Of a stretch of DNA of 64,000 bases, positions 1 through 40,475 are shown piece after piece. Position 1 is the stretch's first letter. Each line of letters opens with the position of its first letter. The notes beneath the pieces are model-generated. The model saw only the letters and a list, made by a program, of their open reading frames with translations. It was not told where the DNA came from and did no database searches. The stretch is from NCBI GenBank assembly GCA_043804695.1, contig JAZDIV010000043.1, positions 1 through 64,000 on the forward strand. The letters are read 5' to 3'. This DNA comes from PVC group bacterium (lineage in GTDB: Bacteria > Auribacterota > Erginobacteria > Erginobacterales > Erginobacteraceae). A program made the translations under genes and the position numbers.

Positions 1-452
1 TCCCGATGATGATATTCCTCACTTTCCCGAATACCGGATCTCCCGGTTTGGGCGTCTCCGGGATCAGGCCCCGGCGGCCGCGCTCCAGGAGCCGCCGAAC
101 CCGGGAGGGAGCCGTCTCACGGAGAGCGTACCTGTCGAGGATGTCAACGCAATTCTCGAAAGTCGTCGGGTCGGGTACGGTGGGGCCGGAGGCGATAACG
201 GACGGATCGTCGCCCGCCACGTCGGAGAGAAGGAGGCCGAGAACCCGGGCCGGGAAGGCGAGGCGGGCCAGGCCGCCCCCTTTCACCCGGGAGAGATGCT
301 TGCGGATGGCGTTTATCTCGCCGATGGCCGCGCCGCACCGCAGAAGCTGTCCGGTGATCGTCCGGATGTCGTCGAGAGCGATGCCCGGGGCCGGGGCGGT
401 GAGAAGAGAGGAACCCCCGCCGGAGAGGACGACGATCAGCAGGTCTTCCACC
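1..452 (-). CDS. Glycerate 2-kinase / TtuD-GckA (DUF4147-MOFRL) family, runs off the window at its 3' end and appears 5'-truncated
   Basis: Manual minus-strand translation gives VEDLLIVVLSGGGSSLL..GEINAIRKHLSRVKGGGLA..LLSDVAGDDPSVIASGPTVPDPTTF..ETPKPGD, the characteristic motifs of class II glycerate kinases. Not in the ORF track because the stop lies outside the window. An in-frame stop lies about 28 codons upstream. Confidence 0.8.
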
Positions 453-578
453 GCCTGAAATGATTTTTTCTCCTCCAAATTTCTAAAGTCCCCCCGTAGC
501 ACATAAACAGGCAGACCTGAAAGATTGTGCTTCAATTAGCCGGCAGGCCATGAGGCGAGATTCTAAATCCACTATCAT

Positions 579-3668: not shown

Positions 3669-3696
3669 CACCACGAAGGGCACGAAGTTCACGAAG
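3669..3696 (+). repeat. CACGAAG-family 9-bp-period repeat
   Basis: CACCACGAAGGGCACGAAGTTCACGAAG; related copies at 14119, 14302, 21796, 21838, 30613 and at both IS110 flanks. Confidence 0.8.
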
Positions 3697-14064: not shown

Positions 14065-14393
14065 TATATCATACTATAAGTTCTATTCCGAATCGTTGTG
14101 TGGGTTATAAGAATAATCAACCACGAAGATCACGAAGGAGATGTATATAAAACCAACCTCATTACCTCGGCATAAGCCTATACATTCACCACCAATTTAA
14201 ACATGGGGACTGGTGCTATAATACCGTGCATCAACCTCAACCTCGCAAAGGCATTAAACCGTGATTGATGTGCCTCATCACTTCTAATCTTCTTGGTTTT
14301 TCTTCGTGTTCTTCGTGTCCTGCTGGTGAATAATAGATGTGGGCTTCCATGCCAAATAGGAAGAGAACCAAACAAAGGTAGACTGAAGACAGA

Positions 14394-21575: not shown

Positions 21576-21897
21576 TCAAGGGAGATGCGGAGGGCGAAGG
21601 GAGAACACCAGCCAGGATTCAGTAGCCGGGCCATTACCCTGCCTGCCTGATCGAACGGATCACCGGTTCCCGGAAGAGATAAAAAAATTCTCTTCGCCAG
21701 CAGGTGGGGCATGGGCTCTAAAAAGCAACCGATTGTTTTTACGAATACATGTCTTATTCGCAAAATGTGTCACAACGAAATAACAATACTTACAATCACG
21801 AAGAACACCCCCGTAGGGCAACCGTACGGGGGTGATCTTCGTGGTGAATAATTTCGTTATTTCTAATAAAGTTTTTAAAAAATTTTTAGAGTAAGGT

Positions 21898-30309: not shown

Positions 30310-30612
30310 GTAAATTAGCTCGCTGCGCTCGCTAATTTATGCTGGATCGTTCTTCACTCCGTTCAGGACTATCAGTAGATGTAGTAAATGTAGTATCGCC
30401 TTGCCGGAGGCCCGGCTTGCTGAATTGCAAGCGAAGCGATCCTACAATTACGGCAAAGAATGCCGAAGGTATTCTGATCCTACAAGTCCTGTCGTAGATC
30501 CTGAGCGTGCCGAAGGAAGCGAAGCGAAAAGACGATACTACACTACCGGATTTCTTTTTAAAAATTCCGAAGCAATAAATTACCTCACTCCCTTACTCTA
30601 TATCTTTTTATC

Positions 30613-30640
30613 CTTCGTGTCCTTCGTGACCTTCGTGGTT
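30613..30640 (-). repeat. CACGAAG-family repeat (3 units) containing an unoccupied IS110 target
   Basis: CTTCGTGTCCTTCGTGACCTTCGTGGTT on the + strand. Confidence 0.85.
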
Positions 30641-30656
30641 TATTGATCTCTATTCC

Positions 30657-31895
30657 TCAAGGAATGGTTTTATTCCCGACTTCTTCGATCAGACGGAGAT
30701 ACTTTCCGGCCAGCTCGTCCGGGTCATGATGACGGGCGACATAGTCACGGCCGGAGTGGCCGAAGTGTACCGCTTCTTCCGGATGATCGGCAAGGTATAT
30801 CAGGCTCCGGGCCAGTTCATGATGGTTTTCCGGCTCGATGCAGATGCCGGCGCCGGCCCGTTCGGTCAACGCGGCTGCCTGGCCGGCTACTCCCATGATG
30901 ACCGGTTTCCCCATCGCCGCCGCCTCGAAAAATTTCGAGGGCAACACCGTTGTGAAGAGTTCGCTGTTTTTCAGATGCGCGAGACAGGCGTCCGAGGCGG
31001 CGAAAAAGCCGGGGATCTCCTCTTTCGGCCGCCGCCCCGCGAAGATGACGTTGTCCAGACCCTCCTGCCGGCAGATCTCTTCCAGCTTCTCCCGGATCGC
31101 CCCGTCCCCGACCAGCATGATGACGATGTCTTCCCTCCCCATCTCCTTGAGGAGACGGGCCGCCCGGGGCACCACCTCCAGGCCGGAACAGAGACCCAGC
31201 GTCCCGATGTAGGAGCAGACATATTTCCCTTCCACTCTGTACTGCTGCCGGATCGTCCGATCGGGGGGCCGCGGGGAAAAAAATGCCAGGTCGGCCCCGG
31301 TGTGGATGACATTAACCTTACCCGGGGGGACCCCCAGCCGGATCAGGTTCTCCCGGTACCCCTCGCCGACGGCCACGATCCGGTCCGCCCCGGCATACAT
31401 CCGCCGGGCCAGCCAATCGAGAAACCGGAGAATTCGCTGATTCCTCATCGCCCCGATCGCGACGATGGTCTCCGGCCAGAGATCGCGGATTTCGAGGATG
31501 AAAGGCGCCCGCCGCAGCCGGGCGGCGATCAGGCCGGCCCAGCCGCAGAAAAACTGGGGGGAGGTAGCGATAATGACCCGCGGCTTTTTCAGAGGCAGGC
31601 TGAAGCAGATGGCCGAGATCATGTACGATAGAAAGTTGAGGATCCTCTTCCCGGTCCCCCGGTTCGGCGCCAGGTAGGTCCAGACCCGGATCACCTCGAT
31701 CCCGTCCACGATCTCCCGGCTCCGCGGCCGGTTGCGGTACCCGGGATAGACCTTCCCGTCGGGGACATTGGGAGCGCAGGTGATCACGGTGACCCGGTGC
31801 CCAGACCGGACCCAGCGGCGGCAGTTTTCATACGTCCGGGAGGCGGGAGCGTTTCCTTCGGGGGGAAAATAATGGCTGAAGAAGAGTATCTGCAT
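30657..31895 (-). CDS. GT4 glycosyltransferase (WbuB-like)
   Basis: HYFPPEGNAPA, ATSPQFF, EIRDLWPE, PSKFFEAAAMGKPV. Confidence 0.9.
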   Translation of the reverse strand: MQILFFSHYFPPEGNAPASRTYENCRRWVRSGHRVTVITCAPNVPDGKVYPGYRNRPRSREIVDGIEVIRVWTYLAPNRGTGKRILNFLSYMISAICFSLPLKKPRVIIATSPQFFCGWAGLIAARLRRAPFILEIRDLWPETIVAIGAMRNQRILRFLDWLARRMYAGADRIVAVGEGYRENLIRLGVPPGKVNVIHTGADLAFFSPRPPDRTIRQQYRVEGKYVCSYIGTLGLCSGLEVVPRAARLLKEMGREDIVIMLVGDGAIREKLEEICRQEGLDNVIFAGRRPKEEIPGFFAASDACLAHLKNSELFTTVLPSKFFEAAAMGKPVIMGVAGQAAALTERAGAGICIEPENHHELARSLIYLADHPEEAVHFGHSGRDYVARHHDPDELAGKYLRLIEEVGNKTIP

Positions 31896-36619: not shown

Positions 36620-37780
36620 TCAATCCGCCTCCTTCTTTCCCAGCTCCCGCAAAGCCGTCAGGAAGGTTTGGGAGACTTCATCCCAGTTGATGAATCGTCC
36701 CTCGGACTGTTTCTTCCCGGCCCTGATCAGGGACCCGGCCGTATCGGGACCGTTCCGGAGATGCGCGATCGCATCCTGGATCGAGGAGGGATTCCAGGGA
36801 TCGAAGTACAGGGCCGCGTCCCCGCAGACTTCGTGAGCGAAGTCCAGATCGCTGGTGAGGATCGGCACCCCGTAGTGCATCGCTTCCAGATAACTTCCGC
36901 TGAATATCTCCATGAGAGAAGGCATCAGCAGGGCGTCCACATGACTGTAATAGTTAGCCAGTTCCGGTTGAAGCCACCGGGAGCCGATATTGATGATCTT
37001 CTTTTCCAGGTGTTTCTTCCTGATGTCGTCGAGAAGGCGCTTCACCGCCGATTGCTGATCCGGAGCCACGGTTATAAATAGAACGGTATCCTCCAATTGC
37101 TCCCGGTAGCGATCAAAGAGATCAACCAGAACTTCAATATTTTTATGAGGATAATATCTCGCGATATAAAAGAGCTTAAAGTGATCCGGGAATGGTTGGA
37201 ACTCCGGAGGGGGAGGTGTACCCGGGGAGACGGCGCGGGTAAATTCCGAGATAGCATTGGGGAGAATGATGGACCTACCCCGGTAATTATATCGGCTGCG
37301 GATGCGGCTATCCGTCACCCGGGTAGGAGTAAAGACAAGGCCGGTCCGGCGGAGATCCCGGGAGAAGACAAGTCGCTTGAGATAAATTTCGAATAACTCT
37401 TTTATACTGATCGAACGGCCGAAGTGACGGCGGGAATAGAGCAGATACGGATTAAGACAGATGATGGCCTGCGGGTAAAGCTTTTTCCCCTGGTATCCCA
37501 GGCTGGACATTCCCACGACAATATCCGGCCGGAACCGGTCCAGCCGTTTCGGAAGCAGCCGGTGATCGAAACGCCACCGCCGCGACCAGGAATGGTCGCG
37601 GAGAGGAATTATTTCCCGGTCCGGCAGGCTCTCGCAGATCGCCTCATAGCCGAGTCCTCCGGGTATGCTGACCAGATACCTCTCGCCGGGCGCGAGCCTC
37701 CCCAGGGCGGCAATGATGTTATGCCCCACCGATATCCCCCCTCCTCCCCGGAGGGCGTGGCAGAGTAATGCGATTCTCAT
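36620..37780 (-). CDS. GT4 glycosyltransferase
   Basis: HKNIE, MPSLMEIFSGSYLEAMHYGVPILTSD, EVCGDAALYFDP. Confidence 0.9.
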   Translation of the reverse strand: MRIALLCHALRGGGGISVGHNIIAALGRLAPGERYLVSIPGGLGYEAICESLPDREIIPLRDHSWSRRWRFDHRLLPKRLDRFRPDIVVGMSSLGYQGKKLYPQAIICLNPYLLYSRRHFGRSISIKELFEIYLKRLVFSRDLRRTGLVFTPTRVTDSRIRSRYNYRGRSIILPNAISEFTRAVSPGTPPPPEFQPFPDHFKLFYIARYYPHKNIEVLVDLFDRYREQLEDTVLFITVAPDQQSAVKRLLDDIRKKHLEKKIINIGSRWLQPELANYYSHVDALLMPSLMEIFSGSYLEAMHYGVPILTSDLDFAHEVCGDAALYFDPWNPSSIQDAIAHLRNGPDTAGSLIRAGKKQSEGRFINWDEVSQTFLTALRELGKKEAD

Positions 37781-37930
37781 TCAATTACCTTTAAAAACAA
37801 TTCTAACCACGAAGTTACCATGTAGACTGCAAAATAAAAAGCCAGTCACTCGCAATGGGTTTTAATGGGGATAAAGATCAAGTATTATAGACGAACGTTT
37901 ATAAACCCCCAAACCCAAAGAGGACTGGCT

Positions 37931-39037
37931 ATGAGTAACTATATCATGGTCGGAGCTGATGTCCATGACAAAGACATTTTGATAAAGGCGGCTCACAACC
38001 GCGGCAATCCGGTTCAGCAAACGTTCAATAACACTCCCGGCGGCAGAGAAAGAATGATAGCAGCGTTGCAGGAACAGGCAGAGGAAGCCGGTAATGCTAC
38101 TGTTGTTTTCGCGTATGAAGCATCGTTTCTCGGATTCGGCCTGTACGATCAGATGACCGATGCCAGGTTTGAGTGCCATGTGCTGACACCGACCAGAATT
38201 GCCCGATCGTCCACACACCGTAAGAGGAAAACCGATGCCAGGGATGCCGAAAGGCTCTTGGAGGTGATCCGAGGACATATCTTGGCCGGGAACGATCTGC
38301 CGTCGATCTGGATCCCCGATCTCCAGACCCGGGATGACCGGGAATTGGTTCGGATGCGTCTGGATGTCGGGAAAAAGATCACCTCGATTAAAAGTCAAAT
38401 ACTTGTCCTGCTGAAACGAAACAATTTCCGCAAGCCCGCAAAAACAGGAAGTAACTGGACCAAAAAACATCGTGTCTGGCTGGCTGAGAGCGCAAAACCG
38501 GAATCGGCTTTGCCAGGTGGTGCCCGGTGCGCGATGAACAGCCTGATGCGACAGCTGGAAGCATTGGAGCAAGAAATCGTCTATCTGGACAAGCACATCC
38601 AGGATCTCTCGGGTGCACCGCGCTATGCGGAACCGGTTCAGGAACTGAAAAAACTCAAGGGGGTGGGCACTCTGACCGCCATGGCGTACCTGACCGAGAT
38701 GGGTGACCTGAGCCGATTCAACAATCGGCGCCAGATCGGCGCGTTCCTGGGGCTGGTACCGTCGAGCTCGGAGAGCGGCCAGAAAGATGATCGCAAGGGA
38801 CATATTACCCATCAGGGCTCCGGTCGGGTCCGGAAGGTGCTCTGTCAGGCCTGCAGGTCGAGAATACGCAACGATCCTCATGAGAAGGATGTGTATGGCC
38901 GAATTGTTGAACATAACCCAAAGCATAAGAATATTGCGGTTGTTGCTTCAATGCGCCGCCTGGCAATAAAAATGTGGCACCAAGGACTCAAAGCCCAGAG
39001 CCGGGCCGGCTCTTTTGAGGCCGCTGTCAATGGTTAA
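37931..39037 (+). CDS. IS110-family DEDD recombinase/transposase
   Basis: GAGGA RBS; VGADVH (D), YEA (E), KTDARDA (DD), GVG..TA, GLVPSSSESG (catalytic Ser region), VA.MRRL. Confidence 0.95.
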   Translation: MSNYIMVGADVHDKDILIKAAHNRGNPVQQTFNNTPGGRERMIAALQEQAEEAGNATVVFAYEASFLGFGLYDQMTDARFECHVLTPTRIARSSTHRKRKTDARDAERLLEVIRGHILAGNDLPSIWIPDLQTRDDRELVRMRLDVGKKITSIKSQILVLLKRNNFRKPAKTGSNWTKKHRVWLAESAKPESALPGGARCAMNSLMRQLEALEQEIVYLDKHIQDLSGAPRYAEPVQELKKLKGVGTLTAMAYLTEMGDLSRFNNRRQIGAFLGLVPSSSESGQKDDRKGHITHQGSGRVRKVLCQACRSRIRNDPHEKDVYGRIVEHNPKHKNIAVVASMRRLAIKMWHQGLKAQSRAGSFEAAVNG

Positions 39038-39137
39038 CGCCGCATAACCCCGTAATCGGAAAGGAAGAATTCCTTAAATACAAAGTATTCATTGTAGCAG
39101 GAGGTAGCTCGTTCGTCTGGATCGCCGATATCAAAAT

Positions 39138-39256
39138 GAGGGGGTGAAAGACCGTTTGTGTCCTGGGCCGATACCGGCCCGTCACGAAGTTTAGTCCGCC
39201 CCCGGCGTTCAGATAAACTGATCTCTCCACAGGAGACGATCGAATAGCAGGATGCG
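39138..39256 (+). ncRNA. Predicted bridge RNA/seekRNA core: target-binding loop (39138-39203) and donor-binding loop (39205-39256)
   Basis: TTGTGTCCT-hairpin-GTCACGAAG matches both target halves; AACT-hairpin-ATAGCAG matches the circle junction. Exact RNA ends are unknown. Confidence 0.82.
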
Positions 39257-39297
39257 CGACTTCGGCGAACCCAGCTAAAACCTGTTGCGATTTTTTC

Positions 39298-39303
39298 TTG
39301 ACT
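39298..39303 (+). promoter_or_regulatory. -35 half (TTGACT) of the IS circle-junction promoter; -10 half TACCAT at 37816-37821
   Basis: Joined ends read TTGACT-ggtatctacatagcagt(17)-TACCAT. Confidence 0.78.
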
Positions 39304-39350
39304 GGTATCTACATAGCAGGACACGAAGTTTTTATAAAATAAGCTACGTT

Positions 39351-40475
39351 CTATGGTTCTCTTATTTTCATAGAAATAAGCTCCCGGTACATCTGATCAT
39401 ACTTCCTCGCCGTCTCCCCGATCGACCAGGACCGGGTCCTCTTTTCAGCAGCGGCCGCGCGGGAACGGGCAGACTCCGGATCAGCAAGGAGATCTCTTAA
39501 TGCCTTTGCCTGCGCGGCCGTGTCTCGCGGGTCGGCCAGAATGGCGGTGTTCCCGTCGAGAATCTCCCGGTGAGCGGGGATGTCCGAGACCAGGAGAGGG
39601 CAACCGCAGGCCATGGCTTCCATCACGGTATTTGGCATTCCTTCGTAATCACTCAGGTTGATAAGGAGATCTGCGCTCTTCATCATTCCCCAGATTGTTT
39701 CCGTCTTTAAAAACCCGCAGAACTTCACCCGGCCTTCAACCCCCCGTCTTCGGGCCAGGGCCTGCAGTTCATTCAGATCTTCTCCTTCACCACAGATAAA
39801 GGCGATCGTGCGTGACTCGGGGTCGAGAGCCGCGATCGCGTTGACGATACGTTCCACACGTTTCTGCCGGGTGAGTCTTCCGGCGTAAAGAACGAAACCT
39901 TGATCTTCTTCTAACCCCAGCTCCTGCCTGCCGATCGGCCGGACCCGGTCAATCTCCTCAAAAGGGAGACTGTTAGAAATGACGCTTCTCAGCTTGTCCG
40001 GATAGAGAGAGCGCCAGTAATCGTCGCCCCCGGCCGAGTTGGAGACGACGGCATTAGCCTTCGTCCCTATCAGAGCGCGGAGCTTTGCCTTCCAGCCGTA
40101 CCGGTATGAATCGCCAGCGTTAGACTCGCGGATGATCCACCGCCCGGCATTGAGAACAGCCGCAATTCCTCCCATAATGTCAGTCTGGGGATTCCAGGTC
40201 TGGATAATATCCGGCCGTACCCGGCGGATCAGCCGGTAGAGTTGAAAGATGAGGCGGGGATCGTAGTTGCTCCTCCCCTTCAGCCGGTGGAGGCTAACAT
40301 GCCGGCTCCAGCCCGGGGGCGGATCTCCTTTATCCCCGAGCGTGACAACGAGGACTTCATAATTGAGTTCCGCCAGACCGTGCGAGAGATACCCCAGCTG
40401 CCGCTCGGCGCCCCCGGATTGAAGCCGGGGGATGACCATCAGAATTCGGAGGGGCCTGTGTATATCCCTATTCAT
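39351..40475 (-). CDS. GT4 glycosyltransferase
   Basis: GGAERQ, AGRLTRQK, SDYEGMPNTVMEAMACG. Confidence 0.9.
   Translation of the reverse strand: MNRDIHRPLRILMVIPRLQSGGAERQLGYLSHGLAELNYEVLVVTLGDKGDPPPGWSRHVSLHRLKGRSNYDPRLIFQLYRLIRRVRPDIIQTWNPQTDIMGGIAAVLNAGRWIIRESNAGDSYRYGWKAKLRALIGTKANAVVSNSAGGDDYWRSLYPDKLRSVISNSLPFEEIDRVRPIGRQELGLEEDQGFVLYAGRLTRQKRVERIVNAIAALDPESRTIAFICGEGEDLNELQALARRRGVEGRVKFCGFLKTETIWGMMKSADLLINLSDYEGMPNTVMEAMACGCPLLVSDIPAHREILDGNTAILADPRDTAAQAKALRDLLADPESARSRAAAAEKRTRSWSIGETARKYDQMYRELISMKIREP

Follow-up and report, generated by a model that had tools for sequence, protein, structure and literature searches.

The stretch of DNA analysed here (the window) comprises 64,000 nt of contig JAZDIV010000043.1, which is contig C43 of a draft genome of 155 contigs, 2.97 Mb and 57.8% G+C that is 88% complete (G000, the source genome). 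It holds an insertion sequence inserted in a short tandem array and a second, unoccupied array of the same word, together with the following neighbouring features:

30613-30639, minus strand: three-unit array with a 9-bp period, reading ACCACGAAG GTCACGAAG GACACGAAG on the minus strand
30617-30628: unoccupied 12-nt target, an exact guide match, with the core AG (CT on the plus strand) at 30622-30623
30657-31895, minus strand: open reading frame (ORF) whose stop lies 17-21 nt before the array at 30613-30639
37806-37814, plus strand: left half of the occupied target, array unit 1 (ACCACGAAG), whose last two bases are the core AG at 37813-37814
37815-39319, plus strand: IS1111-type insertion sequence of 1505 bp, from TTACC... 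to ...CATAGC-AG, with one copy of the AG core counted
37820-37826, plus strand: left subterminal inverted repeat ATGTAGA, whose partner TCTACAT stands at 39308-39314
37931-39037, plus strand: transposase gene, 368 aa, with a DEDD N-terminal domain and a Transposase_20 C-terminal domain
39298-39303, plus strand: TTGACT near the right end, a possible circle-junction promoter
39320-39328, plus strand: right half of the occupied target, the second array unit GACACGAAG

The transposase matches PF01548 (47.2 bits, cut-off 29), PF02371 (74.9 bits, cut-off 21.3) and the NCBIfam model NF033542, "IS110 family RNA-guided transposase" (202.8 bits, cut-off 140), and its C-terminal part matches the recombinase structures of ISCro4 and IS621 (E 6.5e-7 for IS621). 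In IS1111 elements the non-coding DNA after the transposase gene is longer than that before it (PMC11187229 and PMC11208160, in the parts available), and in the window element 282 nt follow the gene (39038-39319) against 116 nt before it (37815-37930). The stretch GLVPSSSESG in the translation corresponds to the motif GL-P----S(T)G of the IS1111 C-terminal domain (available part of PMC11187229). For the group, the subterminal inverted repeats are given as 7-17 bp long and bordered by short terminal extensions (available part of PMC11208160); those of the window element, each 5 nt from the end with the core counted and conserved in relatives, are 7 bp long, at the low end of this range. Its domains, 3' non-coding length, subterminal repeats and motif are marks of the IS1111 group, and by sequence the element at 37815-39319 is an intact IS110-family member of the IS1111 type.

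The boundaries of the element are common to six full relatives and 10 contig-end fragments: relatives start with TTACC(or T)ATGT directly after AG and finish with ...ACATAGC-AG. The AG is present at both junctions in all six full elements and is repeated at 37813-37814 and 39318-39319 in the window element. At 368 aa, the transposase exceeds the 330-350 aa that the available part of PMC11187229 gives for those of the IS1111 group, and it is distant from plasmid-annotated elements (at most about 35% identity), the best named match being ISEc45 at 33%. Mapping the copies of the element, which an earlier sequence-only reading of the window had suggested, led by blastn of this 88%-complete draft to a single assembled copy. 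The two element ends are also complementary beyond the 7-bp repeat (37842-37864 with 39276-39305): TCGCAATGGGTTTTA pairs with TAAAACCTGTTGCGA over 15 nt at 87%, and CCAGTCA pairs with TGACTGG, again between the two ends. In a circle junction, TTGACT (39298-39303) would stand 17 nt upstream of TACCAT (37816-37821) in a promoter-like arrangement, and CTTGAC is kept in seven of eight aligned sequences.

The non-coding region downstream of the transposase gene contains the predicted guide RNA, with these parts:

39122-39268, plus strand: predicted guide RNA of about 147 nt, of the long seekRNA / bridge RNA type, with a closing helix of 39122-39128 with 39262-39268
39140-39203, plus strand: target-binding arm of the predicted guide RNA
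39158-39164, plus strand: 5' target guide GTGTCCT, complement of the top strand AG-GACAC (core and right flank)
39181-39182, plus strand: GT preceding the 3' guide, scaffold
39183-39189, plus strand: 3' target guide CACGAAG, in the same sense as the left flank and core and complementary to the bottom strand
39205-39255, plus strand: donor-binding arm of the predicted guide RNA
39244-39250, plus strand: donor-side guide ATAGCAG, the same sequence as right end and core at 39313-39319, invariant in all eight aligned sequences

Eight 3' non-coding regions were aligned, six from full relatives and two from fragments, and RNAalifold predicts from this alignment two arms, in each of which an internal loop separates the outer helix from an inner hairpin. 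The three-way structure, closed by the helix 39122-39128/39262-39268, is also obtained from all six full sequences folded singly. Pairing is seen in 97.2% of alignment cells, compared with 33-54% when the partners are slid, and five pairs show double changes. The segments GTGTCCT and CACGAAG lie on the 5' and 3' sides of the first internal loop, ATAGCAG lies in the second loop, and the two target guides overlap in the target on the AG core. In IS1111-family seekRNAs, too, the top-strand match stands 5' of the bottom-strand match, with overlap in the target (PMC11187229, available part). A repeat finder alone recovers both matches, the 3' one as CACGAAGTT at 37808, 39183 and 39322 and the 5' one as 39155-39165 against 39317-39327.

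Scanning 37000-40000 with Rfam 15, in which a fitting model may be absent, matched no family; its only hit, to an unrelated lncRNA, is at chance level (E 0.22). A promoter and terminator scan of 37700-39450 returned no plus-strand promoter-like site and no terminator; its two promoter-like sites are both on the minus strand and no more numerous than in shuffles. A search of the donor loop for a complement to the left end (TTACC...) gave no segment that holds consistently among the relatives. The segment GGTAGCT (39104-39110) fits the left end with one wobble, but was rejected as it is not conserved in three relatives (L021, L023 and L042). We also observed that position 39251, the base after the donor-loop core (G or A), equals the first right-flank base of the target in six of seven elements. 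This agreement resembles a product-junction ("handshake") contact; it may also be drift among related sequences, and the base takes part in a U.G or U-A pair of the outer helix.

Our proposed explanation, which we hold to be very probable, is that an IS1111-type element with a two-loop guide RNA at its 3' end specifies the 12-nt unit junction of a 9-bp repeat that forms hairpin arms. In the target loop, GTGTCCT would pair with the top strand AG-GACAC and CACGAAG with the bottom strand of CACGA-AG. Between them the two guides would define a 12-nt site, CACGA-AG-GACAC, within which strands would be exchanged at AG, and the ATAGCAG of the donor loop matches the element's own right end. This site is the junction of two 9-bp units (CACGAAG with the commonest spacer, GA), and the element occupies one such junction, behind the first unit of a two-unit array. 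We infer that the RNA is produced, that the element is still active and that it inserts via a circle.

The array at 30613-30639 bears directly on the length of the 3' guide. On the plus strand, 30617-30630 does read GTGTCCTTCGTGAC, as the sequence-only reading stated. That reading extended the 3' guide by GT, counted a match at all 14 positions and placed this site two positions above the occupied one, and here it does not hold up. A 9-nt 3' guide (GTCACGAAG), with 30617-30630 as the best site of the genome, would draw on the 14-mer being a single copy in the 2.97-Mb genome and on GT directly adjoining the 3' guide in the RNA. However, the G is the same base in all seven elements compared, where it is predicted to pair with U and close the inner hairpin (7/7); the base after it varies among T, G and A independently of the target, and at all seven occupied sites both bases mismatch the target. 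Moreover, GT is merely one of nine spacer dinucleotides found in the arrays (4/43). We therefore regard a 9-nt guide as improbable. Because GT is not guide, the target is a 12-mer, and the occupied site and 30617-30628 match equally, at 12 of 12 guide positions.

Under the 12-nt guide reading, the draft genome has 13 unoccupied exact copies of CACGA-AG-GACAC, a sequence that is itself non-palindromic, where base composition would predict 0.42; with wobble allowed, the number rises to 26. Of the 13, only that at 30617-30628 falls inside the window. The claim of an unoccupied matching site at this position stands as to the exact match but is overstated, and by sequence the site is a genuine candidate landing site, one of 13 genome-wide. 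The genome-wide count proposed with it varies with the word used: one copy for the 14-mer, 13 for the unoccupied 12-mer and, on both strands together, 43 for CACGAAGNNCACGAAG. In the intergenic DNA beside this array (30440-30560), there are also three GATCCTACA-like words, each followed by a GCCGAAGG-type motif.

The relatives of the element, with their amino-acid or nucleotide identities and their targets, are as follows:

L020 and L022 (metagenome loci): 79% aa, target CGCAAAG arrays
L021 and L023 (metagenome loci): 59% and 57% aa, target CACCAAG-type arrays
G057 (locus L042): 62% aa, target a palindromic TCCCCGAAGGGGA-like site
G005 and G007 (contig-end fragments): about 80% nt at the ends, target a REP-like palindrome, GCCCCCGC-AG-GGGGCG

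We compared the guides of seven elements (the window element, G007, L020, L021, L022, L023 and G057) with their own and each other's targets at 7 positions. The 3' guide matches its own target at 7/7 positions in six of the seven elements; that of L022 shows six Watson-Crick pairs and one G.T wobble. The 5' guides match their own targets at 7, 7, 7, 6, 6, 6 and 6 of 7 positions, and off-diagonal scores are lower, bar those of close relatives that share a target. The proposal that the element is RNA-guided and that its guides specify the unit junction is borne out by these relatives, which carry other guides and sit in sequences matching them. Its further suggestion that U.G wobble widens the range over repeat variants has one natural example, that of L022.

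The 5' guides fall into two registers: in the window element and G007 they cover the core and five right-flank bases, and in L020, L022, L021, L023 and G057 one left-flank base, the core and four right-flank bases. As a result, an invariant C, which precedes the inner hairpin by three bases, faces different target positions in the two registers. Junctions in the multi-copy relatives are uniform, with all five left junctions in G005/G007 reading CCCCCGCAG joined to TTAC and all five right junctions CATAGCAG joined to GGGGCG, and the three right junctions of G057 all begin with GGG. Five of the seven elements lie in short-period word arrays, all of them directly after the first (outermost) unit and in one orientation. 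Natural retargeting of close relatives by changed guide segments is on record for ISEc11 and ISXne4 (PMC11187229, available part).

These comparisons also bear on whether the transposase protein could read the repeat word directly, with the RNA matches coincidental or secondary. Three of the seven 3'-guide positions (C, A and G) are constant in all elements and targets, so that part of the match is uninformative and compatible with recognition by protein. The variable guide positions, in contrast, covary with the targets across the seven elements, whose transposases are 57-79% identical, and RNA-guided targeting has been shown experimentally for the family (PMC11187229 and PMC11208160, available parts). 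Direct recognition by the protein is thus highly unlikely, and we retain targeting by the two guides. Searching the class (14 genomes) and the phylum (79 genomes) for relatives added one full relative, that in G057; the search of genome contigs for more gave only transposases of 29-31% identity, and the RNA model search found the guide RNA in four of 79 genomes, none of them new.

Beyond the array at 30613-30639, the sequence-only reading had listed other arrays in the window. All were found, and are intergenic by crude ORF calls:

3672-3696, plus strand: CACGAAG array of three units, whose first junction is a wobble-level guide match
14122-14137 (plus strand) and 14302-14317 (minus strand): inverted pair of two-unit CACGAAG arrays
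21797-21803 and 21838-21844: single inverted CACGAAG / CTTCGTG units, flanking a GC-rich hairpin

The CACGAAG arrays are a real repeat family, far beyond chance. The plain word CACGAAG is not enriched in the genome (397 copies, where the average 7-mer has 363), and the spacing of its tandem units is strictly 9, with 43 matches for a two-base spacer and none for a spacer of one or three bases. Nine spacer dinucleotides are seen, GA being the commonest (12/43). The source genome has 36 arrays of two or three units, 29 of them outside crude ORFs; 13 of the 36 lie within 61 nt after a same-strand ORF stop, and 14 form seven inverted pairs. CACGAAG is one of at least four families of tandem words in this genome, and the only one that the guides of the insertion sequence match:

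CACCAAG, period 8: 56
CACTCCAT-type, period 8: about 36
AAGTGCCTA-type, period 9: about 45
CACGAAG, period 9: 43

We also searched the phylum with a degenerate array pattern, for which reversed-pattern controls gave at most four matches per strand. The source genome has 53 matches, G001 of the same genus 519, G003 361 and G048 214, and about a dozen other genomes have 20-60. A typical repeat reads AAC-(CACGAAGNN)x3, followed by 27-55 AT-rich nt, an inverted triplet and GTT. The arrays are thus the inverted arms of hairpin-type intergenic repeats that are common across the phylum. The earlier contrast between a non-palindromic tandem repeat and REP sequences is therefore right only for the 12-nt site, as the arrays themselves are usually inverted pairs and make REP/REPIN-like hairpin repeats. 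For annotation, these repeats explain contig breaks in sister genomes.

Two further observations concern the build of the repeats. Two loci, 21797-21850 and G000:C110:13339, hold a GC-rich hairpin of the CACCCCCG...CGGGGGTG type with single CACGAAG units around or beside it. Hairpins of this type resemble the palindrome targeted in G005/G007, and a single composite repeat may include both kinds of target. At four loci of G003 (L048, L050, L051 and L054), array doublets lie within a larger inverted repeat (CTAGACCTTACTCGAAAAG... paired with ...CTTTTCGAGTACGGCCTAG), which suggests a longer composite element.

The spread of the arrays also helps to decide whether they were there before the element. 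They could instead be its by-products, for example tandem duplications from IS110-type recombination, and a preprint does describe tandem expansions at IS110 loci (10.64898/2026.08.14.744561, available part). However, G001 and G003, with their 519 and 361 matches, are without the element by DNA, by protein (E<=1e-50) and by RNA model, and at 18 of 31 GxxExxY loci the gene stands between arrays of like build, with no insertion sequence nearby. Our literature search for IS110 with tandem repeats and insertion sites, which did not extend to bioRxiv supplements, returned one relevant preprint, on a different phenomenon. An origin of the arrays as by-products is thus scarcely probable, and we take them as the pre-existing target.

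The link of such arrays to GxxExxY nuclease genes, of the PD-(D/E)XK type, was examined at 31 loci, namely 30 fetched ones (L082-L111) and the one in the source genome. The same 6-nt word, in tandem at 8-10 nt on one side and inverted on the other, was found at 18 of these 31 loci and at none of 59 shifted controls; several of the 13 misses have degenerate arrays by eye. The arms at GxxExxY genes consist of three tandem 7-nt words with an 8-10-nt period, and gene-less hairpin copies are the abundant form. Arm words vary between copies (CGCAAAG, CGCAGAG, CACAGAG, CATGAAG, GCGGATT and ACAGGAT). In G021 (locus L060, ORF 99-470, minus strand), the arms tightly bracket a 123-aa GxxExxY / PDDEXK_3 ORF, and the single GxxExxY gene of the source genome (C127:42541-42885) is bracketed by CACCAAG-word arrays.

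GxxExxY genes are present in 47 of 79 phylum genomes. G048, with 214 array matches and no GxxExxY match, speaks against a simple link between arrays and these genes, as does the source genome, in which no GxxExxY gene has CACGAAG arms. The window and the surroundings of the insertion-sequence copies in L020-L023 and L042 contain no GxxExxY gene. We also considered a RAYT partner; Y1 transposase genes are present in 66 of 79 genomes, which does not discriminate, and arrays occur at none of the six best Y1 loci, and this idea was rejected. Literature searches found no description of an array / GxxExxY repeat system, with GxxExxY mentioned incidentally only; one paper on PF13366 lists its function as unknown, and the array word searched with "extragenic" gave primer-type matches only. 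The system is apparently undescribed.

Compared with known systems, the window element is closest to the IS1111 elements with seekRNA (ISEc11, ISKpn4, ISPa11 and ISPst6; Siddiquee et al. 2024, PMC11187229). In the available part of that paper, they share with it the DEDD transposase, the motif GL-P----SG, the downstream non-coding region, the subterminal inverted repeats, the guide order, the overlap in the target and natural retargeting. It differs from them in a target that is a junction inside a tandem word array. The bridge RNA of IS621 and the IS110 group (Durrant et al. 2024, PMC11208160, available part) likewise has two loops, which serve the target and the ends of the element respectively, reads both strands and has a 2-nt core common to target and donor. 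In contrast to IS621, the RNA of the window element is at the right end, after the gene, and its guide order is reversed; a donor-loop match was found for one end only, and the protein is similar only in its C-terminal part.

Homing to repeated DNA is also known among IS110/IS1111 members. For the REP-targeting ISPpu9 (PMC12288879), as for the window element, many scattered and largely intergenic copies of a repeat serve as landing sites, and homing to other repeated or mobile DNA is known for IS4321/IS5075 and for a group that targets attC. The sister elements in G005/G007 target a REP-like palindrome, as in ISPpu9-type homing, whereas the site of the window element is a unit junction in a direct-repeat array that forms one hairpin arm. 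For the array family, as distinct from the insertion sequence, the closest analogue is REP/REPIN-RAYT. Both are intergenic repeats in tens to hundreds of copies, with inverted doublets (about 27-55 nt apart in the arrays) and a small nuclease-type gene flanked by inverted copies. In the arrays, however, the arm is made of three direct repeats of a 7-nt word with an 8-10-nt period rather than a small palindrome, and the flanked gene is GxxExxY / PDDEXK_3 rather than the Y1 transposase of RAYT.

In the orthologous intergenic regions of G001 and G006, whose flanking genes are adjacent and 67-74% identical, there is neither array nor element. As these regions lack the array, the pre-insertion allele cannot be read there. 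Two runs of public reads (9% of sampled words) yielded four element-internal pieces of 151-270 nt that are 95-99% alike, and no flanks, joints or loose ends. Since only one copy of the element is assembled, its use of the CACGAAG family as a continuing landing pad in the source genome is something that we infer.

In summary, the targeting mechanism is the known one of seekRNA and bridge RNA; what is new is the target in tandem-word arrays and the retargeted series. RNA-guided insertion sequences are thereby tied to tandem-word arrays of the kind that flank GxxExxY nuclease genes. The series comprises seven related elements from an uncultured phylum, with seven guide pairs and four kinds of target on a conserved RNA scaffold, and it shows which positions are truly programmable and which only appear to be. 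More tentatively, and on balance slightly less probably than otherwise, this IS1111-type clade may be a specialised parasite of a selfish system of word-array hairpins and GxxExxY cassettes, tracking CACGAAG, CGCAAAG and CACCAAG by rewriting two 7-nt guides and inserting every time at the junction that follows the outermost unit. Were this the case, the existing array variants and their functional boundaries could be read from where these elements have inserted, and the guide RNA could drive recombination between arrays.
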